Source: Hymenobacteraceae bacterium (GTDB taxonomy: Bacteria; Bacteroidota; Bacteroidia; Cytophagales; Hymenobacteraceae). From it: DNA of 41,795 nucleotides. The stretch covers positions 1 to 41,795 of the forward strand of contig JBKJUQ010000056.1 in the NCBI GenBank assembly GCA_046590685.1. Reading direction: 5' to 3'. Of the stretch, positions 5,864 to 29,714 are shown piece after piece. Numbering within the stretch: the first letter of the stretch is position 1; each line of letters opens with the position of its first letter. Under the pieces are notes generated by a model that did no database searches, was not told where the DNA came from, and saw only the letters and a list, made by a program, of their open reading frames with translations. Both the position numbers and the translations under genes were made by a program.

Positions 5864-5915
5864 CGAAAGGACTGATCAAAAAAAAGAGATGAAAAGCAAA
5901 ATAGGCTTATGAGAC

Positions 5916-9645: not shown

Positions 9646-9691
9646 GGGCTTCGTCCGGCCCGCGAGAAGCAAGCGGGGGACGGAGGGAGCA

Positions 9692-10735: not shown

Positions 10736-10771
10736 GCGGCAAAAAGCGAGTAAACGGAGCGCGAACGGCAA

Positions 10772-12999: not shown

Positions 13000-13583
13000 T
13001 GTGCGATGATAGCAGAGAAATCGGCGGGTTGGTAAGGATACTTGCGCATCAGCTCCTCCTGCAATTCCAGAATGCGCCCGACGGGTCGGTCCTTCACGCG
13101 ACGAGCCGGCGAGCCCATATATACGCCCCACGGCTCCAAATCTTTAGTCACCACGCTGCCGCTGCCCACTACGGTGCCTTCGCCGATGGTTACCCCCGGC
13201 TGTACCACCACGTTGGTGGCCAGGAAAGAATTCTTCTTCAGAATGACGTGCGAACGGGTGTACGACCGAAATTCCGCGGGTACCAGCGGGCTCGGAATAC
13301 CTTGGCCCATCACGTTATCGGTACCGGTAATGATGCGCGAGCCCGCCGCCACGCCCACAAAATCTTCGGCGATGAAAATGCCGCCGCCCGAAATAGCCGT
13401 GTGCGCGGCCAAATGAATGAAGTTGCCGAGGTACGTGCCCTGGCCACCCGCCAGGTACACAAACTCGCTCAGGATGATGTGACTCTTGAACGTAATGACC
13501 TCGGGCTTGATGATCGTAACCGGGTCGTAAATCGTGACGTCTTCGCCGATCTCTCGGAAGATCCGTGGGGGTGCTGCTGACAT
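12987..13583 (-). CDS. Hexapeptide-repeat (left-handed beta-helix) acetyltransferase; positional candidate for the LegH step
   Basis: Repeated [LIV]-G-x4 hexapeptides (VVVQPGVTIGEGTVVGSGSVVTKDLEPWGVYMGSPARRV) and an ATG start. It sits between legC and legI. Confidence 0.75.
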   Translation of the reverse strand: MSAAPPRIFREIGEDVTIYDPVTIIKPEVITFKSHIILSEFVYLAGGQGTYLGNFIHLAAHTAISGGGIFIAEDFVGVAAGSRIITGTDNVMGQGIPSPLVPAEFRSYTRSHVILKKNSFLATNVVVQPGVTIGEGTVVGSGSVVTKDLEPWGVYMGSPARRVKDRPVGRILELQEELMRKYPYQPADFSAIIAQCGQ

Positions 13584-13658
13584 GGGTGCGAATGCTGGTT
13601 GTTAGGTGCGAGCGACGGCTTGGGCGAGTAAACACCCAAGCCGCCGCCAGCAACAGTT

Positions 13659-14885
13659 TTATAAACCGACGGTGCTCGGGATGTTGATCAGGCGCCGGGC
13701 AATGCTGGCGGCGCCGCTTAGGTCGGCTGCGGGGCAAGCGGCGTACATCGGCAAGCGGCTCATCAGCTCCCAGGCCGGACGGGTCATCAGGCCCACGTCG
13801 TTGGTCGCGGCCAAAATGAGGTCGCGCTGCTCTTCCTGTCCCTTATCGAGCAGCAGGCAGTTGAGCCAGTAGTTCGAATGCCCGAATGCGGGCTCTTCCA
13901 CGAACCGAATACCCGGCACCGACGCGAATGCGGCGGCGTAGCGGGCCGCCAAATCGCGCTTTTGCGCCAAAAAGCCGGGCAACTGCTCCAACTGGGCACA
14001 GCCAAGCGCGGCGTTCAGGTTCGGCATGCGGTAGTTGTAGGCGGTCTCGTCGTGAACGAACTCCCAGCGATGCGGAACCTTAGCCGTAGTGGTCAAGTGC
14101 TTCGCGCGGCGGCCCAGCTCCAGGTCGTTCGTCAGGATCGCCCCGCCCCCGCCCGTAGTCAGCACTTTATTGCCGTTGAAGCTCAAGGCGGAAATACGGC
14201 CGACGTTGCCCGTGTGCTTGCCTTTATAGTAAGACCCGAGCGATTCGGCGGCGTCTTCGATCAGCGTGATGTTCCATTCGTCACACACGGCCGCTAGCGC
14301 GTCCAGATCCACCGGATGCCCAAAGGCGTGCATGGGCACGAGTGCCTTGATGCGACGCCCCGTTTGCCGATTGTACGTGAAGCCATCGGCGCGTCGCTCA
14401 CCGACGGAGCGCAGATGGTCAGCAAGCTTGGCCGCATCTACGCCAAGGGTGGTTTCCTCGGAATCCACGAAATGTGGAATAGCGCCGCAGTAACTCACGG
14501 CGTTTGCCGTCGCCACGAACGTGAGCGTCGGCATCAGCACTTCATCGCCCTGTACTACGTCGCTGAGCAGCAAGCAAATGTGCAGCGCGGCGGTACCATT
14601 GGCTACCGCTACGGCGCGCTCGACGCCGCAGAACGCCGCCAGGTCGGCTTCGAAGCGGTCAACGAACTTACCGACCGACGAGACCCAGCCCGTATCGATG
14701 CACTCTTTGAGGTAGCTCCACTCGTTCCCTTTGAAAGTGGGAATGTGAAGTCCGATAAATTGACCATCAGCCTGGTGCCCGTGAATCACGGCGCGGAGGG
14801 TGTCGACGATGGTTTGGGAAAGCTGGCCCACTGGGGCCAAAGAAGCAGCGGTCGGGACGACCGGTGCAGAAGCGTTTTGCGGCAT
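13659..14885 (-). CDS. legC: DegT/DnrJ/EryC1 family PLP aminotransferase, LegC-like
   Basis: IPTFKGNEWSYLKECIDTGWVSSVGKFVDRFE resembles the LegC-family N-terminus. SFNGNKVLTTGGGG contains the PLP lysine region. The ATG at 14885 is preferred over the TTG at 14918. Confidence 0.8.
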   Translation of the reverse strand: MPQNASAPVVPTAASLAPVGQLSQTIVDTLRAVIHGHQADGQFIGLHIPTFKGNEWSYLKECIDTGWVSSVGKFVDRFEADLAAFCGVERAVAVANGTAALHICLLLSDVVQGDEVLMPTLTFVATANAVSYCGAIPHFVDSEETTLGVDAAKLADHLRSVGERRADGFTYNRQTGRRIKALVPMHAFGHPVDLDALAAVCDEWNITLIEDAAESLGSYYKGKHTGNVGRISALSFNGNKVLTTGGGGAILTNDLELGRRAKHLTTTAKVPHRWEFVHDETAYNYRMPNLNAALGCAQLEQLPGFLAQKRDLAARYAAAFASVPGIRFVEEPAFGHSNYWLNCLLLDKGQEEQRDLILAATNDVGLMTRPAWELMSRLPMYAACPAADLSGAASIARRLINIPSTVGL

Positions 14886-14915
14886 AAGGCGCGATAAGTG
14901 AAAACGAATCCGCCG

Positions 14916-14949
14916 CAAAGGTAGCCCCGCCCCGCCCCTGCGATGGCAA
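14916..14949 (-). promoter_or_regulatory. Candidate Bacteroidota-type promoter for the glycan operon (-33 TTG, -7 TACCTTTG)
   Basis: The minus strand reads TTG (14949-14947), then 23 nt, then TACCTTTG (14923-14916). This matches the TAnnTTTG -7 consensus and lies 30 nt upstream of the legC ATG. The spacing is at the long end of the accepted range. Confidence 0.3.
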
Positions 14950-15026: not shown

Positions 15027-15401
15027 TTAGTCGGCGTGCGGCGCCGCCGATTTCTGGCAGCAATCCGGCAGGCGTTGATGCGCGCGCGGGTCGGCTTGCA
15101 CAGAATCGGCGTCGTAGCCCGTGCGCGCAATGGCTAAGCGCAGCTTATCGAGCGACGTTTTGTCGGGCTGATAAACGATGGTCAACATCTTTGATTCTAC
15201 GTCCAATTCAGCGGCCTTCACGCCCTTTTCGTAGGCCATTGCCTTTTCGAGGGTGGTTTTGCACATCGCGCACACTGCGGAAGTCAGGATCTGCGCTTGC
15301 GCCGTACGGGCCGGAGTGGCTTTCGTCGGCGCACCGCTTTGGGCAGTGGCACTAGCCGTGGCGGTCAGCACTAATATCAAAGCGAGCAATATTTTTTTCA
15401 T
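15027..15401 (-). CDS. Secreted heavy-metal-associated (HMA) domain protein
   Basis: Signal peptide MKKILLALILVLTATASATAQ, a CAMC (CxxC) metal-binding motif in an HMA-like fold (KGVKAAELDVESKMLTIVY) and a C-terminal DCC...H cluster. The ATG at 15401 is preferred over the TTG at 15407. Confidence 0.75.
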   Translation of the reverse strand: MKKILLALILVLTATASATAQSGAPTKATPARTAQAQILTSAVCAMCKTTLEKAMAYEKGVKAAELDVESKMLTIVYQPDKTSLDKLRLAIARTGYDADSVQADPRAHQRLPDCCQKSAAPHAD

Positions 15402-15446
15402 CAGCAAGGGAAAGGGGTAAAGGAAGGGAAATTAAATAAACGCACC

Positions 15447-17759
15447 TTAACGCAGCGTGTAGCGCAAGCCCGCGTAGGTTAGGCGCCCAAAAACCGGTCC
15501 CCACACCATCCCCGCGTCGAAGCGCGAGCTAAAGGGGGCATCAGCAGCTACAATGACCGCTGGCTGGCGATAGTTGGTGAAATTTTCAACCCCCACGTAG
15601 ATCTCCAGTTGCTTAAAGGCTCTGGTGACTTGCGAGTTGAACAGCGCATAGCGGGGTGTAGTGCGCATCGGGGGAGCGAGGGCCGATTCAGGGGTGCCCG
15701 CTTGAGTATGGGCATGGTCGAGGCCGGGCAGCGGGCGCTGGCCATACCACTGCGCGGTGAGGTCGAACCGCCATTTATCAAATGCCGACGCGTACCCTAA
15801 GTTCAGAAAAGCGCGGTGGCGCGGCAGCAACGCCCGCGGCAGCTCATAGCCGCCCGAGTAGGTGCTACGCACGTCGTACCATTTCCAGGCGCCCTTTACT
15901 TGGAGACCTTTCAGCACTTCGTAGTGCGCTTCTACCTGCACCGCTTGCGCCACGGAGTTACCGCGCAGATTCGAGAACGTGATCGCGGCGGGGTTGGCAT
16001 ACATATCTACTACCACTTGCTGGGTGAACGTGGTGTGGTAGTAATCGAGAATGACCGCCCCGGGGCGGCCGTGCCACGCGAAGTAGCGCGTCAGCGAAGC
16101 CCCCAGGTTGCGGGCGCGCTCGGGCCGCAGCACCGAGTCGAGGAATACGATCGACCGCGAAGAGGTGAGCGCGTACGAATTCTCCGCCACCGGATTCGCC
16201 ACCCGGAAACCCGTACCGGCGCTCAGGCGCAGTACGGTCTCCGGCGTAAAATCGTATTTCACGCTCAGCCGGGGCGTCAGGATTGGCCCATACAGGTTGT
16301 GCTGATCTATCCGTAAGCCAGCAACGGCCGTCAGCCGACGACTGTCTTGATACGTGTACTCGCCGAAGGCGCCGGGCACGCGCTCGCGGCGGGTTCGCGG
16401 GCGGGCGCTATTCAGCGTCTCGCTGACGTCATCGTACAGGTAGGAAACGCCCGCTTTCCACACGTGCGCCGTCGTACCCAAAATCCCCTGCATCAGGGCG
16501 GTAGCCTGAAAGGTATTCTGGCGCCCACCGTAGGGCCGGCGGCCGTAGACAGCGACCCCGTCGTGCCCGGTCACGTTGGCGAGTACGCCAATGGTTTGGT
16601 ACGGCCGCCCAGCGAACGTGTAGGCCGCCCGGCCAAATGCCGTCAGTCGGTTGGTGGTACTCGTCACGCCGTAGGCAGCACTGGTCAGCGGATTGTCGCT
16701 CCGCCCAAAGGCCATTTGGCCGGCCCGCCGGGTTTCGCGCAGCCCTCCTCCGCCTAGCTCTACCATCCAGTTTGTCCCATCCTTGTACTTCCACTTCGCC
16801 AGCGCATTGTACTGAGTGGCGAGGGGCAGATCCAGGAAGCCGTCGTGGTTGCGGTCGGCGCGGTGAGCAAGATGGTCGGCGTGCAGCAGCAGCTCGGCGG
16901 AAGTACGCGCCGTGAGCGGCGTGGCGGCGACTACGTTGTAGTCGGTTTTGCCCAGGTCGTTGCCGTAAACGTTTACGTGGAGTCGCTCGGCTTTATCGGG
17001 CTCTTTGAGGCGGATGTTCACCTGCCCGCTAATGCCTTCGTAGCCATTCACCACTGAACCCGTGCCTTTGATGATGTCAATTGCCTCGATCCACGGGCCA
17101 GCCAGGTAATTAAGCCGGTAGGGGGTCGCCAGGCCCCGCAACGCGGGCTGATTGTCTACCGTCAGCAACGAGTAAGCCCCGTCGAGTCCGAGTAGCTGAA
17201 TCTGCTTGGCGCCGGAAACCGCATCCGTGGTGGAAACCTCTACGGCCGCGTTGGTTTCGAAGCTTTCGGCCAGATTGCAACACGCCGACTTCGTAAGGTC
17301 ACGCGTCGAAATCGTTTCCATCAGCCCGACACTACTAGCCGAATGCGCTTCGCGCTGCCCGACCACCCGCGCCTCACCGAGGGCCGTGGGCGCTTGAAGC
17401 CCAATGGTCACGGGTCCCGCAGCGGGGCTCATCAGGCGAAGCGTATCGGGCCGCAGGCCCAGAAACCGGACGACTAATCGCCACGGTGGCGCGGTGGCGG
17501 GGTAAGCGATGGAAAACTGGCCGTCCGCATCCGCCGCCGTGCCCTGCCGGGTGCCCAGCCAACTGATGCTCGCCCCCGGCAGGGCTTCCCGCGCACCAGC
17601 GGCTTCCGTCACGCGGCCCGTCAGCGGGCGAATGCCGGCCGACGGCGCCTGCGCCCAGCCGGGCGCGGTGCGCAACAGCGCGCCCAGCAGCAACAGCCAG
17701 GCACCTAATTGGCGCGTGGCTTTCCGAAGGCAAGAAATACCTACTGGAGCGTGCATCAT
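15447..17759 (-). CDS. TonB-dependent receptor with N-terminal CarboxypepD_reg-like domain
   Basis: Signal peptide, LTGRVTEAAG...GASISWLGT...TAADADGQFSI (carboxypeptidase-regulatory-like domain), plug segment KSACCNLAESFETNAAVEV...IDIIKGTGSVVNGYEGISGQVNI, and a C-terminal barrel ending GLRYTLR. Confidence 0.85.
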   Translation of the reverse strand: MMHAPVGISCLRKATRQLGAWLLLLGALLRTAPGWAQAPSAGIRPLTGRVTEAAGAREALPGASISWLGTRQGTAADADGQFSIAYPATAPPWRLVVRFLGLRPDTLRLMSPAAGPVTIGLQAPTALGEARVVGQREAHSASSVGLMETISTRDLTKSACCNLAESFETNAAVEVSTTDAVSGAKQIQLLGLDGAYSLLTVDNQPALRGLATPYRLNYLAGPWIEAIDIIKGTGSVVNGYEGISGQVNIRLKEPDKAERLHVNVYGNDLGKTDYNVVAATPLTARTSAELLLHADHLAHRADRNHDGFLDLPLATQYNALAKWKYKDGTNWMVELGGGGLRETRRAGQMAFGRSDNPLTSAAYGVTSTTNRLTAFGRAAYTFAGRPYQTIGVLANVTGHDGVAVYGRRPYGGRQNTFQATALMQGILGTTAHVWKAGVSYLYDDVSETLNSARPRTRRERVPGAFGEYTYQDSRRLTAVAGLRIDQHNLYGPILTPRLSVKYDFTPETVLRLSAGTGFRVANPVAENSYALTSSRSIVFLDSVLRPERARNLGASLTRYFAWHGRPGAVILDYYHTTFTQQVVVDMYANPAAITFSNLRGNSVAQAVQVEAHYEVLKGLQVKGAWKWYDVRSTYSGGYELPRALLPRHRAFLNLGYASAFDKWRFDLTAQWYGQRPLPGLDHAHTQAGTPESALAPPMRTTPRYALFNSQVTRAFKQLEIYVGVENFTNYRQPAVIVAADAPFSSRFDAGMVWGPVFGRLTYAGLRYTLR

Positions 17760-17972: not shown

Positions 17973-20900
17973 CTAGCGCAGGATATAAAGCTTGCCCCAC
18001 GTCTTGTGGAAAGCCTTATTATCGCCCGCCGTCTTGAAGCTCTTGAACGAATCGGCGTCGTCCTGCACGACCACCCGGTAGAGGTAAACCCCGTTGGCGA
18101 GCGGATCGCCATACTCATCGGTGCCGTTCCAGGTAGCCGTGCTGGTGTTGTTGCCCACGCGCAGGTCGGTGCCAAGCTCCTCCTTCGTGATCTCGCGCAC
18201 CACCCGGCCCGTTACGGTCATCACCTGAATCTTCAGATTCTGGGGCACTTTGCCCGTAATCGTGAACAGGAAGCGGGTGTTCGTCGAGAACGGGTTCGGA
18301 TACGGGTAGAAGTTCGAGATCATGGTCTCGTTGATTACCCGAAACTCCGATTTGTAGGTGTCGACCCCGGCGATGTTACCGGCAGGGTCGGTTGCCTGCA
18401 CCTCCAGCTTATAGACTCCATCGGCGAGCCTTCCGGGCTCGTACGTGACGAGTAGCGGTCGGGTAGCGGTAGCGGCCTGAATCCGCACCTGAGGGGAAGT
18501 GATGGGAATCTGCTCGCCCACAGTTTGGCCGGGGCGAGTCAGAACGAGTACTACCTGTTGCGGATCAAGCGGCACATTCCTGTCCTCATCCCGCACGGAA
18601 ATGGTAATTATTGGCGCGGGCGCCACGATATCACCGTGCAGAATATGCTGCCCATCGAACGCCACATCGATCAGGGGTGCCAGATTCGGATTCACGACCC
18701 GGAAGGGAGTTTCAAAGGTGTTGTTGAATTCGTACTGCTCAGGCTGCATCAGGCCCGGGTTCACCGTCACGCGCAACCGGTAATCGCCGGTTACCTGGGG
18801 CACGGGTAGACGAATAGACGCCCAGGCAATCGAGTCAGGTCGCAAGGGGGCAATTTTGACCGGCAACAGGCTGCCGACAACGTTATTGCCCAAAATCAAT
18901 TCGAACTTCACGGTGATAGAATCGCGAAATGCCACGGTCGAGATATTCTGAAACGGCACTTTCAGGTGCACGAAACCACTATCGACCTGCGGGCTAAGAT
19001 CCAGCGCCCAACGCGGCACCAGATCGGTGCGGACGACCCCTTCCGGCACGCCTTCGTACGTTACGAGCCACTGGCGCAGCTGCGGCGCCACGCGGTTAGC
19101 TGAGTCCTGCGAGGACATCTCAAGGCGAGCTTTCGGAAAACGCACCGGGTCAATTTGCCCTGTGAGCGAGAACGGCGAATCAGAAGCCGTCAGGATCGGA
19201 ATCGGAGCACCGTCGCGGCCGTCGGTATCAATCGGCACTAAAGTCAACTGGTAGTTGGAGGTAGTCGACAGGCGCTTGACCGTGTGATGAACTTCCAGCC
19301 ACCGCTGTACCGGCCCGATGACCGTAGAGACGACCCGACCGCGCGGCTCGTTCGTCTGCCGAATGGTATCAAGAACGATGGTCTGCCCCCAGCGCTCTGG
19401 CAAGCTACGGTCGTAGGTTTTTTCGCTCGCTGAGCCCGGAGCGCCACCCTTCGTGCCCACGATTACGAAAGGATCGCCGGAATGCAAGGAGTCAATCAGG
19501 TTTGAGCCGAGTGAGCGAATAGCCTCCAGCATGGCTGGGCGTTGCGCGCGGATCTCATCGAAGGGTACGCGGTTAGCTGAAACCAGCGCCACGATATAGC
19601 CAGCGGGTACCCGCTCCAGCAGCTTAGCCACGGAGTCGACACGGGCCGAGGTCAGCGTATCATAAACATTTCCGGTAGTTCCGATGCGCACCCGCTCCAT
19701 CAACCCTACCCGGGAAAGCGGCACCGCGGGATTGACGTTTCCATAGGCGCTGAACATGTTGTAGGGATAGTTTGGCGAACCATCATCCTGGCCGTACGCG
19801 GTCGAAGGATCGGCAAGGACCCGCTTCTGCCCACTGCTAGTGACGAAGATGGAATCAACAATCGTGACCGGCTCCAGCGTGCGCGGATCGAAGACCATCA
19901 GGAAGACGTTCGAAACGGCGATGTGGGTCGTCGCGCGCATGCCGGCCGATTGGTTGAACGTGATACCATTGGGCGGAACCGTGAACGTGCGGCCCGCCGA
20001 AGAACCGCCACTGACCTGATACACGGAGCTGTCGCCACTGACCGTACGCAACACGAGTCGTAGCAGCGTAGGCGAGTAGTTCCACCGTCCTGAAGGAGTG
20101 GCTTGCCGAAGACTCGTTTTACGATCGCGCGCGAACTGCCCGTAGTGGCTCTGCGACCACCCACCCGGCGAAGCCATTACGTGTCGGAATGAGGAAGTAG
20201 CCCACGACGAATCCTCAGCGGGTAAAATTGTCTGCGGCCGGAAGCGCCAGTACCACACCAGCGAGTCTTGACCAACTACGGCTGGCAGTGTCGGGCGCCA
20301 GATTGGGTAACGACCTGCAGTGACGAGCTCCTGACGCCGAATCGGCGAGCTGAAGCTCGCCACCGTGTCCAACTCAAAAGTGTAGGTGCGGTTTTGGGCC
20401 AATGGCTGATCGTATTCCCCGACCAAGCCGGGGCTACTCGTTGGCACGATGGCAAACTCCTGGGGGAACAGCGGGAACACACTACCCGACGGGAAGGTGT
20501 GCTGCAACACCGCCCGGTTGTTCGTCTCGTTTAGCTCCTGGACCGAATCCGGCCAGTCGACCGTGACCTCGAATGTGTTGACACCTTGCGCGGCCGCGTC
20601 GGGCGGATTAGGCACGGTGATAACGAGTGTATCGCCAAAGAAGACGGGCCGGAAGGTTTGGTTTACGGGCTGCGTACTGCTCGCGTACGAGCGCCGAACC
20701 TGAACGCGCACCGAATCGTGGGTGGCTTTGCCGAGGTTGCGAACCGCCACGACCACTTCCACGCCCGTAGCACGCGCCGTCAGACGCTGTCCGGGTAAGG
20801 GACGAAGACTGATCGTGGTATTATCGATTTCGTAATCTGGCTGCGTTGGAGTATACAGGTGCGTGGCGGGATCGCTTTGCAAGATCATTTCCAGCAGCTG

Positions 20901-23300
20901 CACCACGCCGCCTTCGCCGAGGGGCACCAACGTGGGCGACGCGCGCTCGATGGCACGCTTCTGCTGATCACCGAGGTTACGACCGTAAGTAAGCGGATCG
21001 TTGAAGGCCGCCGCGTAGAAGGCATTAGAATAGGTGTTGAGCCGATCCGGGTAGCCTTTGGCGCTATACGCCATAAACGCGATAGCTCCACGCTGGGGCG
21101 TAAGCACCCAATCTTCGCCGAAAGACGGGTTGTATTGACCCTGGATAAGGTTATTGTAGAAAATATTGCCCGAGTTGCAGCCGTTCATCAGCAGCATCGG
21201 GTAGCGCCCGGTATTTCGATAGTTAGCCAACGGATCGGAAGCTAAACCGATATCGATATCCGATACCAACGTCGAAGAATGACCGAAGAAGGTAATCAGG
21301 GCCAACCCACGGTTCACCTGGGCCGAAACGTTGATCTCCGAGACGTTTTGACCGGTATTACCCCGCAGAATGCTCGTCACGTGCCCCCCGAAGTAGACAG
21401 AGTCTTCAACGCGAGAGGCATAGTTATTCAAGTAGCCCCGAAACTGCGACTGCTCACCATTGCCCTTACCTCCCCCCAAATGCAGTACCTCTTTCCGCCA
21501 AGCAGCGGGCGGAGCAGCTTCATGCTCCTGTACTTTAGTCAGGTAATCGGCTACGTGGGCCGTCGTACGGGCCGCGATTCGCCCCGTCGGTATCCGCGGC
21601 GCATATTGGTTGTTACGGAAATCAGCCGTGAACATGACGTCCGAAGCGGGAAATCCGAAAGCCGGGACGAAGCCTTTGTCGTACAGTGAACGATTTTGGA
21701 CGAGCGTTCCCGCCGCGCCGTCACGTGGTTGCGGCTGGTAGCCCTTGCCTACCAGAAACAGGTAACGCGCTGGAGTAGGGCCACTATTCATGAAAGACGC
21801 GAAACGCCGAATCGCGTTCGGCGAAGCATCGCCGTAGTGAAACATGTCGTAAAGCTGATCCATCGCCATCACCACGGTGTCGTAGCGGCCACCCAGCGCC
21901 GAGGCCCGGTACGCCGCGTAGTCGCGGATAGGGTGAGCGCCAGTAGAGTCGGTCATGAGCTCCCGACCGGTAACCAGCAGAAAGGCGTTGCCAACGGGGG
22001 CTAGGGGACGCATCATCACGCCTTGCCCACGGGGCGGTACCTGGGGGTTAGCGTCATCGGCTACGAATACTTGCCGGGCACCGGTAGCCGCTGTGGGCAC
22101 CACCACGCCCCACTGTGCGCCAGTATTGACCCCCGTAATTCGGACTGGGGATGCAGCGTTCGTTACGTCATAGCCCATCGCAGCCGCAGGAGCCGTATCG
22201 AAGAGCAGGTACTGCCTAGTGGTCGTAAGCGTAGAATCGGTTACAACCAGCCGGCTTTGCCGCGCCAGGGTATTGGGTACGGCCGACGCGAGCCGCGTAT
22301 AGGACAACGCCACAATCCGCGAGACGCCCACCGGGGGAACGTCTGCGAGCTCGACGCGGAATACCAAGGAGTTAGTAGCGTCAAAATCGGCGTACGCGAG
22401 CGGTACTTCCAGCAACTGGTGGCCGTAGCCTGTCAACCCGGAGAACGGCCCAATGCTGCGCACAACGGTAATTACTTGACTAGTCCCGGTGCCCGTGACG
22501 CGGACGACGCTTACCTTAAGGGGCTGAGGGGCATCGCCGAAGCTTGCCACCATCACCTGTAAGTGCGGCGCAAGATGCGTGGGGTCAGGAGCAGTAGGCA
22601 GCGTGATCGTCTGAACATCACCAAACTGGACCGTGACGGGCCCGTTGCCTGTCTGAAGAGTATAGCCGAATACCTTACCAACGAAGCCTTCCGACTTATC
22701 GAGCCACGGCATCGAAGTCTCGGCCGACGTATCATACACCTTTCCCCGCTCGTAAAACGAGGTAATAGCTTTCTGCACCCGCGTTACGTGGTAGCGGATC
22801 GGCGTGAGACCCGCTGGGGTCGACGCGAGAGCAGTCATGCGGCGAGTAGGGGATCCGGCCGGAGCGATAGTCAAAAAATAGGCAGCGGTATCCGTGTAAA
22901 GCGGCGCGATGTGCGACACCTGATCTGCCGGATTCTTGTAAAGTTCCGCTTCCAGGAGGCCATCGTTGGGTAGGCCCCAGAAATCGACGTAGTCCGCCGC
23001 GTCCAGACGGCCATCGGCTTCGCCGGCCACGTAAATGGCTTGCTCTTGCCCACGGCGCCAGAGCTGCAACCGGCGCGGGTCGAGGGAGGTAACGGGTACC
23101 CCGGCCGCCGTCAGCCAGTCGCTCGTCAGGCGCTGGATGCCGCGCTGCCCAACTTTGATCTTATAATAGGGCTGGCCGGCTTGAATCCACTCGTTGCCAA
23201 ATTGGCCAAGTGGCGCCGGTTGCGCCAAGGCACGACCGGAACACAACAGTAGACCTAGCAGCGGAAGCAGGCGAACACTGAGAGTAAGAGATCGGATCAT
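17973..23300 (-). CDS. Giant (1775 aa) secreted PorU-like protein with a gingipain-type peptidase C25 domain, CARDB-like domains and a T9SS-type C-terminal domain
   Basis: Signal peptide MIRSLTLSVRLLPLLGLLLCSGRALAQ. C25-like core at about residues 437-760 (YLFLVGKGYQ, FFGHSS with His674 at nt 21279-21281, LLMNGCNSG with Cys708 at nt 21177-21179). CARDB-like segments (VAVRNLGKATHDSVRVQV...ELNETNNRA; QYEFNNTFETPF). C-terminus NFYPYPNPFSTNTRFLF...GVYLYRVVV...GKLYILR. Confidence 0.8.
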   Translation of the reverse strand: MIRSLTLSVRLLPLLGLLLCSGRALAQPAPLGQFGNEWIQAGQPYYKIKVGQRGIQRLTSDWLTAAGVPVTSLDPRRLQLWRRGQEQAIYVAGEADGRLDAADYVDFWGLPNDGLLEAELYKNPADQVSHIAPLYTDTAAYFLTIAPAGSPTRRMTALASTPAGLTPIRYHVTRVQKAITSFYERGKVYDTSAETSMPWLDKSEGFVGKVFGYTLQTGNGPVTVQFGDVQTITLPTAPDPTHLAPHLQVMVASFGDAPQPLKVSVVRVTGTGTSQVITVVRSIGPFSGLTGYGHQLLEVPLAYADFDATNSLVFRVELADVPPVGVSRIVALSYTRLASAVPNTLARQSRLVVTDSTLTTTRQYLLFDTAPAAAMGYDVTNAASPVRITGVNTGAQWGVVVPTAATGARQVFVADDANPQVPPRGQGVMMRPLAPVGNAFLLVTGRELMTDSTGAHPIRDYAAYRASALGGRYDTVVMAMDQLYDMFHYGDASPNAIRRFASFMNSGPTPARYLFLVGKGYQPQPRDGAAGTLVQNRSLYDKGFVPAFGFPASDVMFTADFRNNQYAPRIPTGRIAARTTAHVADYLTKVQEHEAAPPAAWRKEVLHLGGGKGNGEQSQFRGYLNNYASRVEDSVYFGGHVTSILRGNTGQNVSEINVSAQVNRGLALITFFGHSSTLVSDIDIGLASDPLANYRNTGRYPMLLMNGCNSGNIFYNNLIQGQYNPSFGEDWVLTPQRGAIAFMAYSAKGYPDRLNTYSNAFYAAAFNDPLTYGRNLGDQQKRAIERASPTLVPLGEGGVVQLLEMILQSDPATHLYTPTQPDYEIDNTTISLRPLPGQRLTARATGVEVVVAVRNLGKATHDSVRVQVRRSYASSTQPVNQTFRPVFFGDTLVITVPNPPDAAAQGVNTFEVTVDWPDSVQELNETNNRAVLQHTFPSGSVFPLFPQEFAIVPTSSPGLVGEYDQPLAQNRTYTFELDTVASFSSPIRRQELVTAGRYPIWRPTLPAVVGQDSLVWYWRFRPQTILPAEDSSWATSSFRHVMASPGGWSQSHYGQFARDRKTSLRQATPSGRWNYSPTLLRLVLRTVSGDSSVYQVSGGSSAGRTFTVPPNGITFNQSAGMRATTHIAVSNVFLMVFDPRTLEPVTIVDSIFVTSSGQKRVLADPSTAYGQDDGSPNYPYNMFSAYGNVNPAVPLSRVGLMERVRIGTTGNVYDTLTSARVDSVAKLLERVPAGYIVALVSANRVPFDEIRAQRPAMLEAIRSLGSNLIDSLHSGDPFVIVGTKGGAPGSASEKTYDRSLPERWGQTIVLDTIRQTNEPRGRVVSTVIGPVQRWLEVHHTVKRLSTTSNYQLTLVPIDTDGRDGAPIPILTASDSPFSLTGQIDPVRFPKARLEMSSQDSANRVAPQLRQWLVTYEGVPEGVVRTDLVPRWALDLSPQVDSGFVHLKVPFQNISTVAFRDSITVKFELILGNNVVGSLLPVKIAPLRPDSIAWASIRLPVPQVTGDYRLRVTVNPGLMQPEQYEFNNTFETPFRVVNPNLAPLIDVAFDGQHILHGDIVAPAPIITISVRDEDRNVPLDPQQVVLVLTRPGQTVGEQIPITSPQVRIQAATATRPLLVTYEPGRLADGVYKLEVQATDPAGNIAGVDTYKSEFRVINETMISNFYPYPNPFSTNTRFLFTITGKVPQNLKIQVMTVTGRVVREITKEELGTDLRVGNNTSTATWNGTDEYGDPLANGVYLYRVVVQDDADSFKSFKTAGDNKAFHKTWGKLYILR

Positions 23301-23381
23301 AGAGAAAAACCGGAAGGATTAGTAAAGGTGCCCAGCACTGCAGCGGCGATTAGCTAGCCGGTGCGGGCTGCCCAAAACAGA

Positions 23382-24485
23382 TTAATTGAAGGAGTAACCG
23401 AGCGAAACGATGATGCTCGACAGCTTGGCGGAGCCCGTCTGCGAAACGTCGGAGTTAGCCGCGACCTTGGAAAGGGCTAGATCGAGCGTCAAGCCATTGG
23501 TGGCGACGCCAACGCCAAAATTTGGCTGAACGCGTGTTTTATCGCTCCCGTCAAAAGACTTGATTTTCTGCACGTTGTTGAGGCCAGCGCGCACGTAGGC
23601 AATCTGCGCCCAACCAATCTCCAACCCGACGCGGGGATCGACACTGACTGCTTTGCCCGCAAGTAATACATTTCGTTTACCATCGAAGGTGGCGTCGAGA
23701 TCCAGCGCGGTAAGCACCGTAAAGTCCTTACCGATGGCGAACTGCCGGCTTATGCCCAACACCGCGCGCGGCAGCGTCAGCTCTAATGTGTTACCCGGGA
23801 TGGTATTACCGGTTTGCGCGTAGACATCCTTCAACTCATCGGCGTTGATCGACCACGCGTTGAAAGTGCTCGTGACGTCCTTCGCCATCAAGCCGAATTG
23901 CCATTTCCCGCGTCGCAGCTGGGCGCCCGCATCAAGGCCAAAACCGACGGCATTAGCAAACTTGCCCACGTTACGATAAATCACCTTGGCGTTGGCGCCG
24001 ATGCTCAGGCCTTCTACCTGGCTGAGCTTTCGCCCGTAGGACACAAGAAAAGCATAATCCGCGACGGAGAAGTACTGAATCTGATCATATCGCAGATACC
24101 CGTACTGATCGGCAAGGCCCCGCGTATCGGCGATATCATCAACTCCCATTCGAATGACGGACACCCCAAGTGCCGATTTATCGTCGAGGGGCATCGCGAA
24201 AGCCGCGTAATCGTTCTTGACAATGCCCGAGAATAGCTCGGAGTGCATCAGGATGCCATTAAATTTCTTAGGTTGGTACACCAGCCCGGCGGGGTTCCAG
24301 TAACCCGCGGTTGGGCCGTCGGCAATCGCGGCCTGGACGTTACCCATTCCCAGGGCGCGACCGCCAACGCCGATGTTCAAGAACTCGTTGGAATACTTCG
24401 GCGTAGTGGTTTGCGCAAGGGCTGGAAAAGTGGCTACACAGGCCAGCCCGAGCAACGTGGTCAACAAACGGGGAAGTGAGCGCAT
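23382..24485 (-). CDS. PorV/PorQ-family outer-membrane beta-barrel protein (T9SS shuttle-like)
   Basis: Signal peptide ending PALAQ. FLNIGVGGRALGMGNVQAAIADGPTAGYWNPAGL matches the PorV/LptO-type N-terminal signature. Alternating beta-strand pattern with a C-terminal aromatic residue (SLGYSFN). It lies 81 nt upstream of the PorU-like gene on the same strand. Confidence 0.75.
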   Translation of the reverse strand: MRSLPRLLTTLLGLACVATFPALAQTTTPKYSNEFLNIGVGGRALGMGNVQAAIADGPTAGYWNPAGLVYQPKKFNGILMHSELFSGIVKNDYAAFAMPLDDKSALGVSVIRMGVDDIADTRGLADQYGYLRYDQIQYFSVADYAFLVSYGRKLSQVEGLSIGANAKVIYRNVGKFANAVGFGLDAGAQLRRGKWQFGLMAKDVTSTFNAWSINADELKDVYAQTGNTIPGNTLELTLPRAVLGISRQFAIGKDFTVLTALDLDATFDGKRNVLLAGKAVSVDPRVGLEIGWAQIAYVRAGLNNVQKIKSFDGSDKTRVQPNFGVGVATNGLTLDLALSKVAANSDVSQTGSAKLSSIIVSLGYSFN

Positions 24486-24844: not shown

Positions 24845-26086
24845 ATGGCAGCCTCTCCCCTTCCATACATCCGGGCCCTCGACGGCGTCCGCGGCGGCGC
24901 AGTATTGCTCGTGGTGTTCTCGCATTGGCCACTGGGGCACTGGCAGGTACCCCTGGGCTGGGTGGGAGTGCCGGTTTTCTTCGTGCTCTCGGGTTTTTTG
25001 ATCACCCGGCTGCTCGTGGCCGACCGGGAGCAAGCAGTGGGGCCATACCTGCGACGGTTTTACTGGCGACGAACGCTGCGGATTTTTCCGCTTTATTACG
25101 TCTACCTGTTCAGCGTCGGCGGGGCGCTGCTGGTCGCAATGCGCCTACTCCCCACTGCGCCCGCGTGGCTGGCAACCAACGCACGGGCCGCCCGCACCGA
25201 CGCGCTGCTGCTGCTGACCTACCTCTACAACTGGCAGGACCTCCTCCATTGGTTCGACAGCCGCCCCGATTCGCAGGCTGCGCGCGCCTTCAATCACCTT
25301 TGGTCGCTGAGTGTAGAAGAGCAGTTTTACCTTACCTACCCGTTAATCGTCTGGGCACTGCCGACGGCCCGGCTGCGGCGGGTGCTGCTGGCGCTGGTGC
25401 TGATCGGCCCGTTGCTCCGGTGGGGCTTGGGGGAGGTACTCCGCGAACTGCCCGCGCGGCCCGGGGTGTGGGCTTTCTTCGCGAACCGAGCCACCCCTTT
25501 CTACCTCGACGCGCTGGCCGTTGGCGGACTACTGGCCCTCGGGGTGGGTGCGCAGCTACGCCGGCCGGGGCGGTGGCTACTCGGCGTATCGACCGCGACC
25601 CTGGCGTGGAACCTAGTGGTGGTAGCAGCAAATCACATTGCCCTCGGGCGGGGCTGGCCGTCGTGGCGTTGGCTGGGTTATGAGCATCCGCTTCAGCTTT
25701 ACCAGTGGGCCGCGCACGCACCGCCGGCTGGCCGCTGGCCGTGGGCGCTCCTCCCGACGCTGGTGAACGTGCAGGCTGCCTTCCTGCTGCTTTGGGCTAT
25801 CCGGGGCGGTCCGACGGTTGCGCGGTGGCTGGAAGGACGGCCGATTCGGTACGTCGGTCGCATTTCCTATGGCCTCTACATCTGGCATATGCCCTTGACG
25901 CTTCTGGTGCTTCACGGGCCGGCGTACGACTGGCTGAAAACCGGCTGGCTCCCCGAAACGCTCGGGCTAATGACGTACCTGCTGGTGGTGGGAGGCGTCG
26001 CGACGGGCAGCTACTACGGCTTTGAAAAATTATTTCTGCGGCTAAAGGAAGCAAAAACCCCCTCTACGGCCTCTAATGGGCCTTAG
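24845..26086 (+). CDS. Acyltransferase family 3 (OafA/NolL-like) integral membrane protein
   Basis: LPYIRALDGVRGGAVLLVVFSHW...GWVGVPVFFVLSGFLITRLL is the Acyl_transf_3 signature. It has about 10 hydrophobic segments and an ATG start. Confidence 0.8.
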   Translation: MAASPLPYIRALDGVRGGAVLLVVFSHWPLGHWQVPLGWVGVPVFFVLSGFLITRLLVADREQAVGPYLRRFYWRRTLRIFPLYYVYLFSVGGALLVAMRLLPTAPAWLATNARAARTDALLLLTYLYNWQDLLHWFDSRPDSQAARAFNHLWSLSVEEQFYLTYPLIVWALPTARLRRVLLALVLIGPLLRWGLGEVLRELPARPGVWAFFANRATPFYLDALAVGGLLALGVGAQLRRPGRWLLGVSTATLAWNLVVVAANHIALGRGWPSWRWLGYEHPLQLYQWAAHAPPAGRWPWALLPTLVNVQAAFLLLWAIRGGPTVARWLEGRPIRYVGRISYGLYIWHMPLTLLVLHGPAYDWLKTGWLPETLGLMTYLLVVGGVATGSYYGFEKLFLRLKEAKTPSTASNGP

Positions 26087-26123: not shown

Positions 26124-26271
26124 CAAGTACCTTGCATAGCCAAGTACCTTGCGTCTACCTTTGTGTCGTTCATCAGCAACAACTCGCCCACCAGGGCTTT
26201 TTTTACCGCCATCTACTTGGCAATACCAAGTACCAGGCCTTTGGCAGTACCCGGCTCAGGCCAGTACCGGC
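26124..26271. promoter_or_regulatory. Array of AGTACC-core motifs with 17-bp phasing upstream of padR
   Basis: CAAGTACCTTGC at 26124-26135 and 26141-26152. CCAAGTACCAGG 26226-26237, GGCAGTACCCGG 26243-26254, GCCAGTACCGGC 26260-26271. A degenerate in-phase CTACTT at 26213-26218. TAC cores sit at 26214/26231/26248/26265 and at 26128/26145. Confidence 0.45.
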
Positions 26272-26314
26272 TGATACCCACCTCGCTTTCTCTCACCTTT
26301 TTATATCCCCCCTT

Positions 26315-26710
26315 ATGAAAGTTGAAAATACGCAGGTCCAGATGCGAAAGGGCATTCTGGAGTTCTGCATCCTTGAAATCATCGGCCGCGGCGAGACCTA
26401 CGCGTCCGACATGCTCGCCGAGCTCACGGCAGCGCGGATGCTGGTAGTGGAAGGCACGCTTTACCCGCTGCTCACACGTCTCAAAAATGCCGCCCTGCTC
26501 GAGTATCAATGGATTGAGTCAGTGAGCGGTCCACCGCGCAAGTACTACGTGCTGACCGAAGACGGCCGGCGCTTCCTGAGCTTGCTGCGCCAGACGTGGG
26601 CCGAGATGGTCACCTCGATCCAGATCATTCAGCAGCACCCGGCGGCGGCGAAATCCCTGCCCCCGGCCCCTACCGGCGATGCTGCCGCCGACTTCACTGA
26701 GATTGCCTAA
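26315..26710 (+). CDS. PadR family transcriptional regulator
   Basis: MRKGILEFCILEIIGRGETYASDMLAEL...VVEGTLYPLLTRLKNAALLEYQWIESVSGPPRKYYVLTEDGRRFL is a classic PadR winged helix. The ATG at 26315 (MKVENTQ) is preferred; the track extension from 26132 covers the motif array. Confidence 0.85.
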   Translation: MKVENTQVQMRKGILEFCILEIIGRGETYASDMLAELTAARMLVVEGTLYPLLTRLKNAALLEYQWIESVSGPPRKYYVLTEDGRRFLSLLRQTWAEMVTSIQIIQQHPAAAKSLPPAPTGDAAADFTEIA

Positions 26711-26736: not shown

Positions 26737-29490
26737 ATGAAAAAGAGTATCAGCATCAACCTGCAAGGCCTCCTGTTTCACATCGAAGAGGATGGCTACG
26801 ACATCCTGCGCCGCTACCTGGCCGAAGTCAAGCAGCACTTTTCGGCTTATGCCGGACACGAGGAAATCGTGGCCGACATTGAAGGCCGCATCGCCGAGCT
26901 GTTCGCCGCCCGGCTGACGCCCAGCAAGCAAGTCATTACGCTCGAAGACGTACTCGCCGTCACGGCGCAGCTGGGCCGCGTAAGCGAGTTCGAGCTACCC
27001 GACGATGAAGACGTGCCCGCCGCTGGCGCGGCCTACAGCCGCCCGGCTGCCTTCGGAGACGCCCCGATGGGTGATAGCCCGCTGGCCGGCGAGCCTCGCC
27101 GCTTGTTCCGCGATGAGGCGAACAAGAAAGTAGCAGGCGTAGCCGCCGGCCTCGGTCACTACTTCAACATCAACCCGCTCTGGATCCGGTTGGCGTTTGT
27201 GCTGGTGGCGCTGCTCAACACCGACTTTCTCTTCAACCTAGACCGCCATTTTCACTTCAACTTCGGCGGACTGAGCTTCCTGACCTACATCATCCTGTGG
27301 GTGGTGATGCCGAAGCGCGCGGGCTTGCCGGTAGCTGGTGGCCCGGATACCCGCGGCCCCGGCGCGGGCCGCAAGCTGTTCCGCGATACGCAGGCCGGCT
27401 CGGTAGGCGGCGTGGCGGCTGGGCTGGCGTGGTACCTCAAGCTCGACGTCACGCTCGTGCGGGTGCTGTTCGTGGTGCTGATGGTTGCCGGCGGCTCGGG
27501 TTTCCTGCTCTACCTGATTCTGTGGATCGTGGTGCCCGAAGCCAAGACTCTTTCCGACCACCTGGAAATGCGCGGCGAAGCCGTCACGCTCTCCAACATT
27601 GCTTCCTCGGCCTCCGCCGACCCCATCGGTGCCGGCCGGGCGCGCGTGGTGCAGGAAAACCTGAGCTCGATCGGCTCCAGCATCGCGCCGATCTTCCGAT
27701 TCATCTTCATGCTCATCGCGTGGTTTGCCGCCTTCGTGCTGCTGTGCATCGCCGTGGCGCTGCTGGTAAGCATCGGCTCAGTGCTGGGAATCGTACTGGG
27801 TGCTTTTCCCGACACGGGCTGGGTTCATACCGGCGAAATTCCGGTCGAGCTTCTGCGCTCCACTGTTCCTACCTGGGGCCTGGTGGCGGGTTTCGTAGCG
27901 GCGCTGGTACCCACCATTGCCTTGATTACGCTCGCCGTGCGGTTGTTCACGAAACGGCCGATTCTGTCGGCCTCGGCCCGGCTTACCCTCTTCGGGATCT
28001 GGCTGCTCGCCATCGTCGGGGTAGCAGCGGCCGCGGGCCGCGTAACCCGCGACTTCCGCGAACGCGCTGAGGTGACGGTTCGCCAGCAACTGGAAGTCGC
28101 CACGCCCATCGTGGTGCTCGATGTGGCACCCAGCATCGACTCCGACTTGCTGCGCATCGATGATCTGACGGTTCGCCGCGCCGATTCGGGCGCTACCCCT
28201 AGCCTGAGCTTGCGCATCAGCGCCCGGGGCGAAACCCCCGACGCGGCTCGCCAGGCCGCCGAGATGGTCGAGTACCAATCGCAGGCCGTCGATTCCATCA
28301 TCACCCTGTCACACGCGTTCCGGTACCGCCAGGGGGCGGTCTGGCGCGGCCAGGAAGTGGATCTGGCGCTGCACCTGCCCGCCGACCGCCGCTACCGCCT
28401 GACGGAAGCGTTCACGAATATGCTCGACCGTGACGTGTACGACGACCGGTACAGCCACGACAACAAGAACCAGCAACGACTTTTCACGGTCGAAAAAGGC
28501 CGTTTCAAGCTGGTGAGCGGCCCGGAAGCCAGCTTCGACGCCGACGATGAGGAGAACGACGAGGCGGATTCGGAGGATGCCGACGATAACGACAACCAAT
28601 TTGATGTGAATGTCAACGGCGAGCACATCCACATCGACCTACCCAGCTTCGGCAACCGCGAGGGCTTCCGCCTCCGCGAGCCCGGAGGGGCTGCCGCCAG
28701 CCGGACCTGGAGCCTCGATGACTTCAAGCGGCTGGATGTCAGCGGCGCTTATCAGGTGCGCTTGCGCCGCGGCGATACGTTCCGCGTGTCGGCCCGCGGC
28801 CCGCGCCGGGTGCTCGACAAAGCGCGCGTCTGGGTAGAAAACGGCACGTTGCACCTCGATCCTGAGTCGGGTTTCAACCTCTCGCTGTTCGGCCAGAAAG
28901 GCCGCCGCCACGAGGAAGTACTGTTCGAGATCGAGATGCCCGAACTGGAAGGCCTGGATGTGAGCGGGGCAGTCCGCGCCGACGTGGGCAATTTCGGTGG
29001 GCCGAACGAAATTCAGGTCGACCAATCCGGCGCTACCTGGGTGAAGCTCGAAGTGGCCACCACCCCGGTGAGCCTCGACGCCAGCGGCGCCAGCCACACG
29101 ATGCTCATCGGGGCAACCCGCTCCCTCAACGCGGAGCTGAGCGGCGCCTGCGACTTGCGGGCCCAGCGCCTCGAAGCGCGGGAAGTAAAGGTAGAAGCTT
29201 CCGGTGCCAGCCGCGCCAGCGTGAATGCCCGCCACCAGCTCCGCGCCGACGCCTCCGGCGCCAGCCACATTACCTACTACGGTCAGCCCGAAAACATCGA
29301 AAGCGATGCCAATGGCGGCTCGACCATCAAGCGCGCTTCCCGCAAGGCCACCGATGAGGAGGCCACTGAGGAGGACGCCGACGACGAAACCAGCGACGGG
29401 GCCAAAGCCCCCGTCGCCCCCGCAATGCCAGCGCCCCCGGCGGGTCCCGCAACGCCCGCCACTCCCGCGAAACGGGCGGTTGGCACCTGA
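26737..29490 (+). CDS. Large membrane protein with two PspC domains and a C-terminal DUF2807/GIN (Toastrack-like) beta-helix region
   Basis: The N-terminus MKKSISINLQGLLFHIEEDGYDILRRYLAEVKQHF is typical of PadR-partner sensors. PspC motifs: RLFRDEANKKVAGVAAGLGHYFNINPLWIRLAFVL and KLFRDTQAGSVGGVAAGLAWYLKLDVTLVRVLFVVL...LYLILWIVVPEA. Repeated LDVSGA...strand segments occur in the C-terminal third, with acidic low-complexity tracts. Confidence 0.8.
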   Translation: MKKSISINLQGLLFHIEEDGYDILRRYLAEVKQHFSAYAGHEEIVADIEGRIAELFAARLTPSKQVITLEDVLAVTAQLGRVSEFELPDDEDVPAAGAAYSRPAAFGDAPMGDSPLAGEPRRLFRDEANKKVAGVAAGLGHYFNINPLWIRLAFVLVALLNTDFLFNLDRHFHFNFGGLSFLTYIILWVVMPKRAGLPVAGGPDTRGPGAGRKLFRDTQAGSVGGVAAGLAWYLKLDVTLVRVLFVVLMVAGGSGFLLYLILWIVVPEAKTLSDHLEMRGEAVTLSNIASSASADPIGAGRARVVQENLSSIGSSIAPIFRFIFMLIAWFAAFVLLCIAVALLVSIGSVLGIVLGAFPDTGWVHTGEIPVELLRSTVPTWGLVAGFVAALVPTIALITLAVRLFTKRPILSASARLTLFGIWLLAIVGVAAAAGRVTRDFRERAEVTVRQQLEVATPIVVLDVAPSIDSDLLRIDDLTVRRADSGATPSLSLRISARGETPDAARQAAEMVEYQSQAVDSIITLSHAFRYRQGAVWRGQEVDLALHLPADRRYRLTEAFTNMLDRDVYDDRYSHDNKNQQRLFTVEKGRFKLVSGPEASFDADDEENDEADSEDADDNDNQFDVNVNGEHIHIDLPSFGNREGFRLREPGGAAASRTWSLDDFKRLDVSGAYQVRLRRGDTFRVSARGPRRVLDKARVWVENGTLHLDPESGFNLSLFGQKGRRHEEVLFEIEMPELEGLDVSGAVRADVGNFGGPNEIQVDQSGATWVKLEVATTPVSLDASGASHTMLIGATRSLNAELSGACDLRAQRLEAREVKVEASGASRASVNARHQLRADASGASHITYYGQPENIESDANGGSTIKRASRKATDEEATEEDADDETSDGAKAPVAPAMPAPPAGPATPATPAKRAVGT

Positions 29491-29544: not shown

Positions 29545-29714
29545 TGGGCGACAGATTGGCGTATCGGCCGGACGGGTTCGGCGAGAATCCTCCCCGGTTG
29601 GGCGAGTAAATACTGGGACTCACCAGCCAACCACTTGATGATGTGATAGCTACGCAGGAGGCGAACGAGCAGCTTTGCTCTATTCCAAAGCACTTTTATC
29701 CCCCGCTCCAGCTG

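Follow-up and report, generated by a model that had tools for sequence, protein, structure and literature searches.

The window analysed here is a stretch of 41,795 nucleotides (nt) from a Hymenobacteraceae bacterium (assembly GCA_046590685.1, contig JBKJUQ010000056.1, positions 1 to 41,795 of the forward strand). Its minus strand carries two co-directional open reading frames (ORFs), the upstream one for an outer-membrane barrel and the downstream one for a large peptidase. They are here called PorV2 and PorU2, and are related to PorV and PorU, the "attachment" proteins in Bacteroidota's type IX secretion system (T9SS). They are separated by an 81-nt gap (23301-23381). This gap, the FLNIGVGGRALGMGNVQAAIADGPTAGYWNPAGL motif found in the 367-aa barrel, and residues His674 and Cys708 of the peptidase, 34 residues apart, all lie where a first-pass annotation of the sequence had placed them, as an ORF and sequence check confirmed. 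The two genes and the parts of PorU2, including its T9SS-type C-terminal domain (CTD) and an immunoglobulin (Ig)-like domain, are as follows.

23382-24485, minus strand: PorV2 gene, a 367-aa PorV/PorQ-superfamily outer-membrane barrel (NCBIfam NF052325, PorVQ2).
17973-23300, minus strand: PorU2 gene, a 1775-aa PorU-related C25 cysteine peptidase (NCBIfam NF052324).
23223-23300, minus strand: PorU2 signal peptide, residues 1-26, ending in GRALA and followed by Q (read from sequence).
21981-23222, minus strand: PorU-type N-terminal domains, residues 27-440 (hhalign to H. latericus PorU; NF052324 cross-matches).
20859-21938, minus strand: Peptidase_C25 catalytic domain, residues 455-814 (Pfam PF01364, E 4.5e-57).
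21279-21281, minus strand: His674, within FFGHSS, aligned to the C25 catalytic His.
21177-21179, minus strand: Cys708, within NGCNS, aligned to the C25 catalytic Cys.
20514-20768, minus strand: CARDB domain, residues 845-929 (Pfam PF07705, E 3.8e-10; PDB CARDB-like matches 3IDU and 2KL6).
18681-20513, minus strand: family-specific insert, residues 930-1540 (AlphaFold2 (AF2), Foldseek and profile search).
18321-18683, minus strand: PorU-type Ig-like domain, residues ~1540-1660 (profile alignment to 6ZA2; T9SS_sortase model).
17976-18320, minus strand: CTD, residues 1661-1775, T9SS type A-like/PorU-like (TIGR04183).

The window pair is a fairly divergent additional example of a family that NCBI curators have already catalogued under a "putative" name. 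The large protein scores 854.1 bits on NF052324, "putative type IX secretion system sortase PorU2" (cut-off 450), with a match spanning residues 28-928 and model positions 15-879 of 879; on the canonical PorU model NF033707 (T9SS_sortase) it stays below the cut-off, at 160.7 bits against 420. Likewise, the barrel passes NF052325, "putative type IX sorting system protein PorV2", over its full length (518.4 bits, cut-off 325), is narrowly above the PorV/PorQ superfamily model NF033709 (PorV_fam; 94.9 bits, cut-off 90) and falls below the canonical PorV model NF033710 (31.9 bits, cut-off 250). Pfam PorV does not match the window barrel, and neither the PorP/SprF model (TIGR03519) nor the type-B CTD models are among the NCBIfam matches of the barrel and the peptidase; for comparison, a real PorP/SprF protein in one related locus (L033) reaches 240 bits on the PorP/SprF model. 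With the PorU2/PorV2 models passed and the canonical models failed, the pair is a paralogue distinct from canonical PorU/PorV, as the first-pass annotation had suggested. The label it gave for such pairs, putative PorU2/PorV2, is indeed the one carried by NF052324/NF052325 and by homologues. PorU2 shows all the features of the family, namely the model score, the C25 His/Cys dyad, a length of ~1650-1780 aa with insert and PorU-like C-terminus, and an adjacent PorV2 on the same strand. The database contains 253 PorU2 homologues, many of them named PorU2 by NCBI, with identities of 36-78% among the 120 listed. The closest relatives come from metagenome-assembled genomes (MAGs) of Hymenobacteraceae, whose proteins are 78% (PorU2) and 90% (PorV2) identical to those of the window, and NCBI-named PorU2/PorV2 homologues are found in Hymenobacter, Pontibacter, Rufibacter, Adhaeribacter and others.

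A scan of GTDB with one genome per species returned at least 573 confirmed matching stretches for the PorU2 family, mostly in Cytophagales. Counts over 80 loci given here and below refer to the best-scoring 80 of these stretches, which are not a random sample. They come from Hymenobacteraceae, Cyclobacteriaceae, Roseivirgaceae, Fulvivirga, Marivirga and Thermoflexibacter, and also include MAGs labelled Flavobacteriales, Chitinophagaceae, Sphingobacteriales and Bacteroidales. In 66 of the 80, PorV2 is the next gene upstream of PorU2 on the same strand, and the two frames often overlap by 4 nt (longest-ORF calls). No terminator is predicted in the 81-nt gap of the window; in promoter and terminator scans, sites were no more frequent than chance.

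Both proteins begin with Sec signal peptides that end in ALA before a Gln. This residue (Gln27 of PorU2, invariant in 22 homologues; Gln25 of PorV2, its predicted first mature residue) is invariant in the homologues of each protein. In Bacteroidota, secreted and outer-membrane proteins typically have a Gln at this place, directly behind the signal peptide.

PDB searches with single sequences of PorU2 or PorV2 matched no structure. A profile of 22 PorU2 sequences, used both for the PDB search and for alignment of the dyad, matches P. gingivalis PorU (6ZA2, E 4e-20), Kgp (4RBM/4TKX, E 3e-09) and RgpB (1CVR). In this profile alignment His674 and Cys708, the pair on which the first-pass reading of a C25 peptidase hinged, line up with the catalytic His and Cys of PorU (6ZA2), Kgp (4RBM) and RgpB (1CVR): FFGHSS falls opposite the motifs AGHGG, AHGS and GHGS around the catalytic His, and NGC opposite ATC, NCC and VAC around the catalytic Cys. 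Both residues are invariant across the 22 homologues, and all of the 80 related loci that are readable there retain a GH...C pair, with the Cys in an NGC or NSC/NNC context. Alignment of the dyad with PorU, Kgp and RgpB, together with its retention in all related loci, argues for an enzyme under selection.

The likeness to PorU extends to both sides of the catalytic core. By hhalign, residues 44-~815 of PorU2 align with residues 169-971 of the canonical PorU of Hymenobacter latericus (probability 99.6%, 688 columns), and canonical PorU fragments cross-match NF052324 over the N-terminal region of PorU2. The first-pass annotation had assigned about 430 N-terminal residues to an unknown fold; this has to be corrected, since the profile-profile alignment with Hymenobacter PorU and the NCBIfam cross-matches identify them as homologous to the N-terminal domains of canonical PorU. 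At the other end, the last ~230 residues of PorU2 (profile positions 1454-1672) align with residues 930-1144 of PorU (6ZA2), that is, the Ig-like domain plus the CTD; positions 954-1086 of the T9SS_sortase model match residues 1618-1754. The CTD scores 23.9 bits on the T9SS type A model TIGR04183, which is marginal against a cut-off of 23, and there are further matches of this region to the C-terminal ends of the PorU and PorZ models. The C25 core, the CARDB-like module and the T9SS-type CTD of the original description are thus borne out by Pfam for the first two and marginally by TIGR04183 for the third. Judged from its sequence, PorU2 combines the scaffold of PorU, made up of N-terminal domains, C25 core, Ig-like domain and CTD, with a family-specific insert of ~600 residues.

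PorV2 is a PorV-superfamily protein of the PorV2 family. Aligned with a Hymenobacter PorV alignment by hhalign, it matches over its full length (probability 93%, 315 columns, 21% identity), and comparison with a single PorQ sequence gave no significant similarity. Its AF2 model has 14 strands and a pLDDT (predicted local distance difference test) of 68.5. The best PDB match of this model is PorV in the F. johnsoniae translocon (8GL6_F; template-modelling (TM) score 0.61), with FadL-family channels and 6H3I_F ranking next.

Cleavable CTDs of cargo proteins normally show little conservation. In the PorU2 family, median identities over 64 loci fall from 57% (CTD) and 49% (PorV2) to 38% in C25, 32% in the N-terminal domains and 25% in the insert. 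Among 22 homologues, 31% of the CTD columns are invariant, and the CTD averages 60.7% identity to distant homologues versus 28-42% elsewhere in PorU2. The PorU CTD remains bound to PorV and the PorZ CTD to PorQ, and cognate PorV-like barrels have been proposed to shield CTDs from cleavage (PMC10202324). Stronger conservation of the CTD and PorV2 than of any other element of the pair is what a CTD retained as a docking surface would lead one to expect.

The canonical PorU sortase removes the CTDs of cargo and attaches cargo to anionic lipopolysaccharide (A-LPS), together with PorV, PorZ and PorQ. We lean, with slightly better than an even chance, towards reading the two genes as an operon for a second T9SS surface module of PorU/PorV type, paralogous to the canonical one. 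By analogy with PorU-PorV and PorZ-PorQ, PorU2 would be exported by Sec and then by the T9SS by means of its CTD, which would be kept and dock onto the cognate barrel PorV2, so that PorV2 would hold the enzyme at the cell surface. There, the C25 domain could cleave the CTDs of some T9SS cargo, and PorU2 might then release the cleaved cargo or transfer it to a surface acceptor. As for the insert, its Ig-like domains may act as a stalk or a binding platform. On the basis of homology and synteny, the pair may serve to sort a subset of cargo or to provide an alternative anchor.

The insert is composed of the following parts.

Residues 941-1089: conserved beta-sandwich with the motif DSVVWYWR...GGWSQSH (AF2).
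Residues ~1112-1295: ILEI/FAM3/POMGnT1-stem-like alpha/beta module (AF2, Foldseek).
Residues 1307-1423: second beta-sandwich (AF2).
Residues 1443-1535: second CARDB-like domain (AF2).

The AF2 model of the insert, made from a 14-sequence alignment, has a pLDDT of 80 and a predicted TM score of 0.70. In Foldseek it resembles generic Ig/MG-domain arrays, and its alpha/beta module resembles the carbohydrate-binding stem domain of POMGnT1 (5GGJ_B, TM score 0.76 normalised to the target). Pfam ILEI gives 25.4 bits on this module, which is sub-threshold (cut-off 27), and FAM3 matches in the profile search agree. When the PorU2 profile is matched to P. gingivalis PorU, residues ~930-1540 find no equivalent there. 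Searching with a profile built from the insert recovers 1173 representative clusters (E<=1e-30); of the top 150, nearly all are 1600-1770 aa long and have the insert at the same position. This constant placement makes the insert a hallmark of PorU2 architecture. Conservation within PorU2 is lowest in the ILEI-like module, which has 0 invariant columns in 22 homologues and whose ~190 residues are missing from two PorU2 proteins of ~1510 aa, P0116 (H. psychrophilus) and P0118 (H. amundsenii). A role of this module as a substitute for PorZ, supplying acceptor binding, is weakened by both observations.

These features bear on a more elaborate proposal, in which the pair would be a self-contained second attachment machine working without PorZ and PorQ. 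The insert, with its WYWR...GGWSQSH beta-sandwich and the lectin-like ILEI/POMGnT1-stem module, would bind the acceptor, and a cargo subset would be ligated to a surface glycolipid other than an A-LPS-type anchor. The machine would be the sole sortase where canonical PorU is absent, and it might act with the PadR-PspC envelope-stress module encoded nearby (see below). We hold this to be improbable.

Our main rival to a second sorting module is a dedicated surface protease with its own shuttle. PorU2 would then be a large T9SS-secreted surface protease or adhesin (e.g. for nutrient acquisition or the processing of surface proteins) without a sortase role, and PorV2 its dedicated shuttle and anchor, much as PorP/SprF-like barrels have their genes beside those of single type-B substrates, which need them. 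C25 domains do occur in ordinary secreted proteases, as the Kgp and RgpB matches illustrate, the insert resembles an adhesin-like Ig/MG-domain array with a lectin-like module, and neither cargo nor acceptor genes are linked to the pair in the 80 loci. In F. johnsoniae, specialised shuttle/substrate pairs are recognised by the tight linkage of barrel and substrate genes (PMC12618676). However, the homology to PorU reaches well beyond the protease core into the N-terminal domains, the Ig-like domain and the CTD, and is much stronger than that to gingipains (E 4e-20 versus 3e-09; probability 99.6%). In addition, PorV2 belongs to the PorV and not the PorP/SprF family, the CTD is type A/PorU-like and not type B, and the architecture is fixed over more than 1000 clusters, which is unusual for adhesins or nutritional proteases. 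Overall, we consider such a protease rather unlikely.

The pair being a paralogue of an existing system, one could also see in it a decaying or redundant porU-porV duplicate without a function of its own. This is contradicted by intact full-length genes in at least 573 stretches and more than 1000 clusters, by the invariant dyad, by the conserved CTD and PorV2 and by the fixed architecture, and we regard it as extremely improbable.

In Hymenobacter, the second pair coexists with the canonical one. The H. latericus chromosome CP110136.1 carries canonical porU (1324 aa) followed by porV (396 aa) at 2.64 Mb, and, at 0.53 Mb, PadR-PspC and then divergently PorV2 (370 aa) followed by PorU2 (1698 aa). 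The gene order is therefore porU to porV for the canonical pair and PorV2 to PorU2 for the second one, a reversal that the first-pass annotation had stated correctly. It had also named, as an outcome that would speak against a second module, that these be the only porU/porV homologues of the genome and cluster with the canonical ones; in relatives the outcome is the opposite, with both modules in H. latericus and window proteins that fail the canonical models. The canonical PorU of Hymenobacter used in the hhalign comparison scores 1218 bits on NF033707. According to the supplements of PMC7323717, the H. swuensis proteins are PorV (Hsw_0468), PorU (Hsw_0469) and PorQ (Hsw_3169). They score 459.5 bits on NF033710, 360 bits on NF033707 (a 560-residue N-terminal fragment) and 385 bits on NF033711, respectively, and all three lie far under the PorU2/PorV2 cut-offs. 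A search with H. swuensis PorV found canonical PorV in many Hymenobacter species, of which at least 14 (13 beyond H. latericus) also appear in the PorU2 or PorV2 lists. Carriers of canonical PorV together with PorU2 or PorV2 include H. seoulensis, latericus, canadensis, psychrophilus, fodinae, wooponensis, crusticola, persicinus, saemangeumensis and jeollabukensis, as well as strains NST-14, CRA2 and 5516J-16 and a record labelled "Microvirga sp. STR05". As a separate observation, H. aquaticus has two PorU2 genes (P0086 and P0093) with consecutive locus tags, E5K00_01075 and E5K00_01080.

Coexistence bears on the possibility that, in some Cytophagales and perhaps in the window organism too, PorU2/PorV2 takes the place of canonical PorU as the chief enzyme for CTD processing. 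The supplements of one survey (PMC7323717) give PorV, PorQ and PorZ, and no PorU, for three Rufibacter genomes and one Pontibacter genome, and PorU2 and PorV2 are present in all sampled Rufibacter and Pontibacter. In these genera, either a divergent PorU was missed in the survey as tabulated there, or PorU2 is the sole PorU-like enzyme. Yet the lack of PorU in the supplements may stem from the BLAST thresholds of the survey, Hymenobacter, the genus of the closest named relatives, carries both systems, and PorV2 is kept alongside canonical PorV. Replacement has, in our view, a slim chance.

The other genes of the window that were annotated are listed below.

26132-26710, plus strand: PadR regulator, ORF as called (Pfam); probable true start at ATG 26316.
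26737-29490, plus strand: 917-aa membrane protein with two PspC domains, a LiaI-LiaF-type transmembrane region, Toast-rack and DUF2807 (Pfam).
24845-26086, plus strand: Acyl_transf_3 family membrane acyltransferase, between PorV2 and PadR.
15027-17759, minus strand: TonB-dependent receptor (770 aa) and after it a small secreted protein of the heavy-metal-associated (CopZ/MerP-like) type, immediately downstream of PorU2.
2281-14918, minus strand: legionaminic-acid-type nonulosonic acid biosynthesis cluster.
840-2276: flippase-like gene beside this cluster.
29643-32270, plus strand: T9SS type-A CTD cargo gene, a DUF5060/apiosidase-like putative glycoside hydrolase.
33966-35765, plus strand: T9SS type-A CTD cargo gene, an SBBP beta-propeller protein.

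The TTG start called for PadR at 26132 is probably ~61 codons too far upstream: alignments with homologues begin near residue 62, and translation more likely starts at ATG 26316 (MKVEN...). PadR and the PspC protein lie divergently upstream of PorV2 in 47-48 of the 80 loci and in several Cytophagales families; besides PorV2 and PadR-PspC, no gene family is common to more than 21 of the 80. A functional link of PadR-PspC to PorV2-PorU2 is uncertain. Just upstream of PadR, at 26125-26151 and 26228-26270 of the window, there is an operator-like direct repeat, with copies that approximate AAGGTACT or CCAAGTACY at a spacing of exactly 17 bp; these repeats fall within the N-terminal extension of the PadR ORF as called. 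GTAC-N13-GTAC occurs 3 times in the window versus 0.35 expected, and the 8-mer AAGGTACT is found in 29 of 43 PadR-PorV2 intergenic regions (among loci L002-L059). The GTAC repeat is probably a PadR autoregulatory site. For a PadR operator controlling PorV2 we found no support, the repeat adjoining PadR and being absent upstream of PorV2 in the window.

The PadR-PspC neighbourhood raises the idea of surface remodelling linked to envelope stress, in which the pair would be tied to the divergent PadR-PspC/Toast-rack unit and would, for example, shed or re-sort surface proteins upon envelope damage. It draws on the 47-48 loci across several families with no other conserved neighbour, and on the conserved repeat with its 17-bp spacing in the shared intergenic region. 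On the other hand, this repeat lies 12-100 bp from the PadR start and looks like PadR autoregulation, not PorV2 control. In the window itself an acyltransferase gene, found at the PorV2-PadR position in only 1-3 of the 80 loci, separates the two units, and the region upstream of PorV2 is without the repeat. Moreover, the PadR-PspC linkage is absent outside core Cytophagales, and the synteny may be inherited gene order. A tie to envelope stress appears very unlikely to us.

The legionaminic-acid-type cluster comprises LegB, LegC, NeuB, NeuC, a sugar-phosphate nucleotidyltransferase, a PseF-like cytidylyltransferase, SDRs, an acetyltransferase and a DltB/MBOAT-like protein. Neither this cluster nor the TonB receptor was retained as a partner for anchor synthesis, because they recur in only 1-2 of the 80 loci.

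Several observations weigh against a second sorting module. The CTD is conserved equally where PorV2 is not adjacent, so its conservation may reflect T9SS recognition and not docking. PorV2 is not adjacent in 14 of the 80 loci, in at least one of which (L034) the stretch ends just upstream of the gene. De novo clustering of neighbours in the 80 loci showed no consistently linked cargo gene, glycan-synthesis/LPS gene or PorZ/PorQ paralogue. The residue that follows the catalytic His is Ser, Ala or Gly, not always the usual Gly of clan CD, and the confidence of the PorV2 model is only moderate. The ILEI-like module, putatively glycan-binding but least conserved and missing from two homologues, cannot be essential to a common mechanism. 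Finally, full-text literature searches on the PorU2/PorV2 pair returned only false positives or papers on a single PorU/PorV, with no study or experiment on the pair itself; the first-pass annotation likewise knew of none.

In the loci without PorV2, a divergent barrel in its place was considered and rejected: the upstream ORFs are housekeeping genes or, in L069, a split-off N-terminal fragment of PorU2. One of these loci, L033 (Thermoflexibacter ruber, 6508-9732), has PorU2 without adjacent PorV2, and the next upstream ORF, on the opposite strand, is the PorP/SprF protein of 240 bits mentioned above; a second ORF clustered in the same PorP/SprF family lies further upstream.

What sets the release of T9SS cargo versus its covalent anchoring, and which anchor is used outside Porphyromonas, are questions of the field (PMC10202324; PMC12860637), and the literature on C. 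hutchinsonii lists a single PorU/PorV pair, CHU_3237/CHU_3238. A second PorU-like enzyme that has its own barrel, is conserved in hundreds of Cytophagales species and coexists with the canonical sortase clearly suggests itself as a candidate for dividing cargo between different fates. The family has already been flagged by NCBI curators, so the window adds an example and a clearer anatomy, not a discovery; in this anatomy an insert is added to the PorU scaffold, CTD and barrel are conserved together, and PadR-PspC lies nearby.

Among known systems, the gingipains RgpB and Kgp share the catalytic fold and dyad with PorU2, but the similarity is much weaker than that to PorU, and PorU2 has PorU-type flanking domains instead of a gingipain prodomain or haemagglutinin-adhesin architecture. 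The PorZ-PorQ and PorP/SprF-type-B pairs share with PorU2-PorV2 the logic of a barrel and one specific CTD protein, whose CTD is thought to stay bound (PMC10202324; PMC12618676). In other respects they differ: PorV2 is not significantly similar to PorQ (one sequence) and does not match the PorP/SprF model, and PorU2 matches PorZ only via the CTD.

Canonical PorV (F. johnsoniae, 6H3I and 8GL6; NF033710) has in common with PorV2 the superfamily and a FadL-like 14-stranded barrel. In contrast, PorV2 is only ~21% identical to it, fails NF033710 and has a strongly conserved N-terminal motif of its own, TPKYSNEFLNIGVGGRALGMGN. Canonical PorU (P. gingivalis PG0026, 6ZA2; C. hutchinsonii CHU_3237; NF033707) shares with PorU2 the N-terminal domains, the C25 dyad, the Ig-like domain, a type-A-like CTD and an adjacent PorV-family barrel. 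The two differ in the ~600-residue insert between the CARDB and Ig-like domains, found only in PorU2, and in gene order, barrel to peptidase as against porU to porV, and both coexist in relatives. Hymenobacter PorU has in addition a "long-form" N-terminal extension (NF052318), which the window PorU2 lacks.

The closest system is the NF052324/NF052325 family itself, with hundreds of annotated members (Hymenobacter, Pontibacter, Rufibacter, Adhaeribacter, Cyclobacteriaceae and others) that have the same length, domain order and gene order as the window pair. Nothing of substance sets the window apart from it: the window clade is 51-78% identical to its nearest PorU2 relatives, its ILEI-like module carries ~50 extra, poorly modelled residues, and an acyltransferase gene is inserted between PorV2 and PadR.

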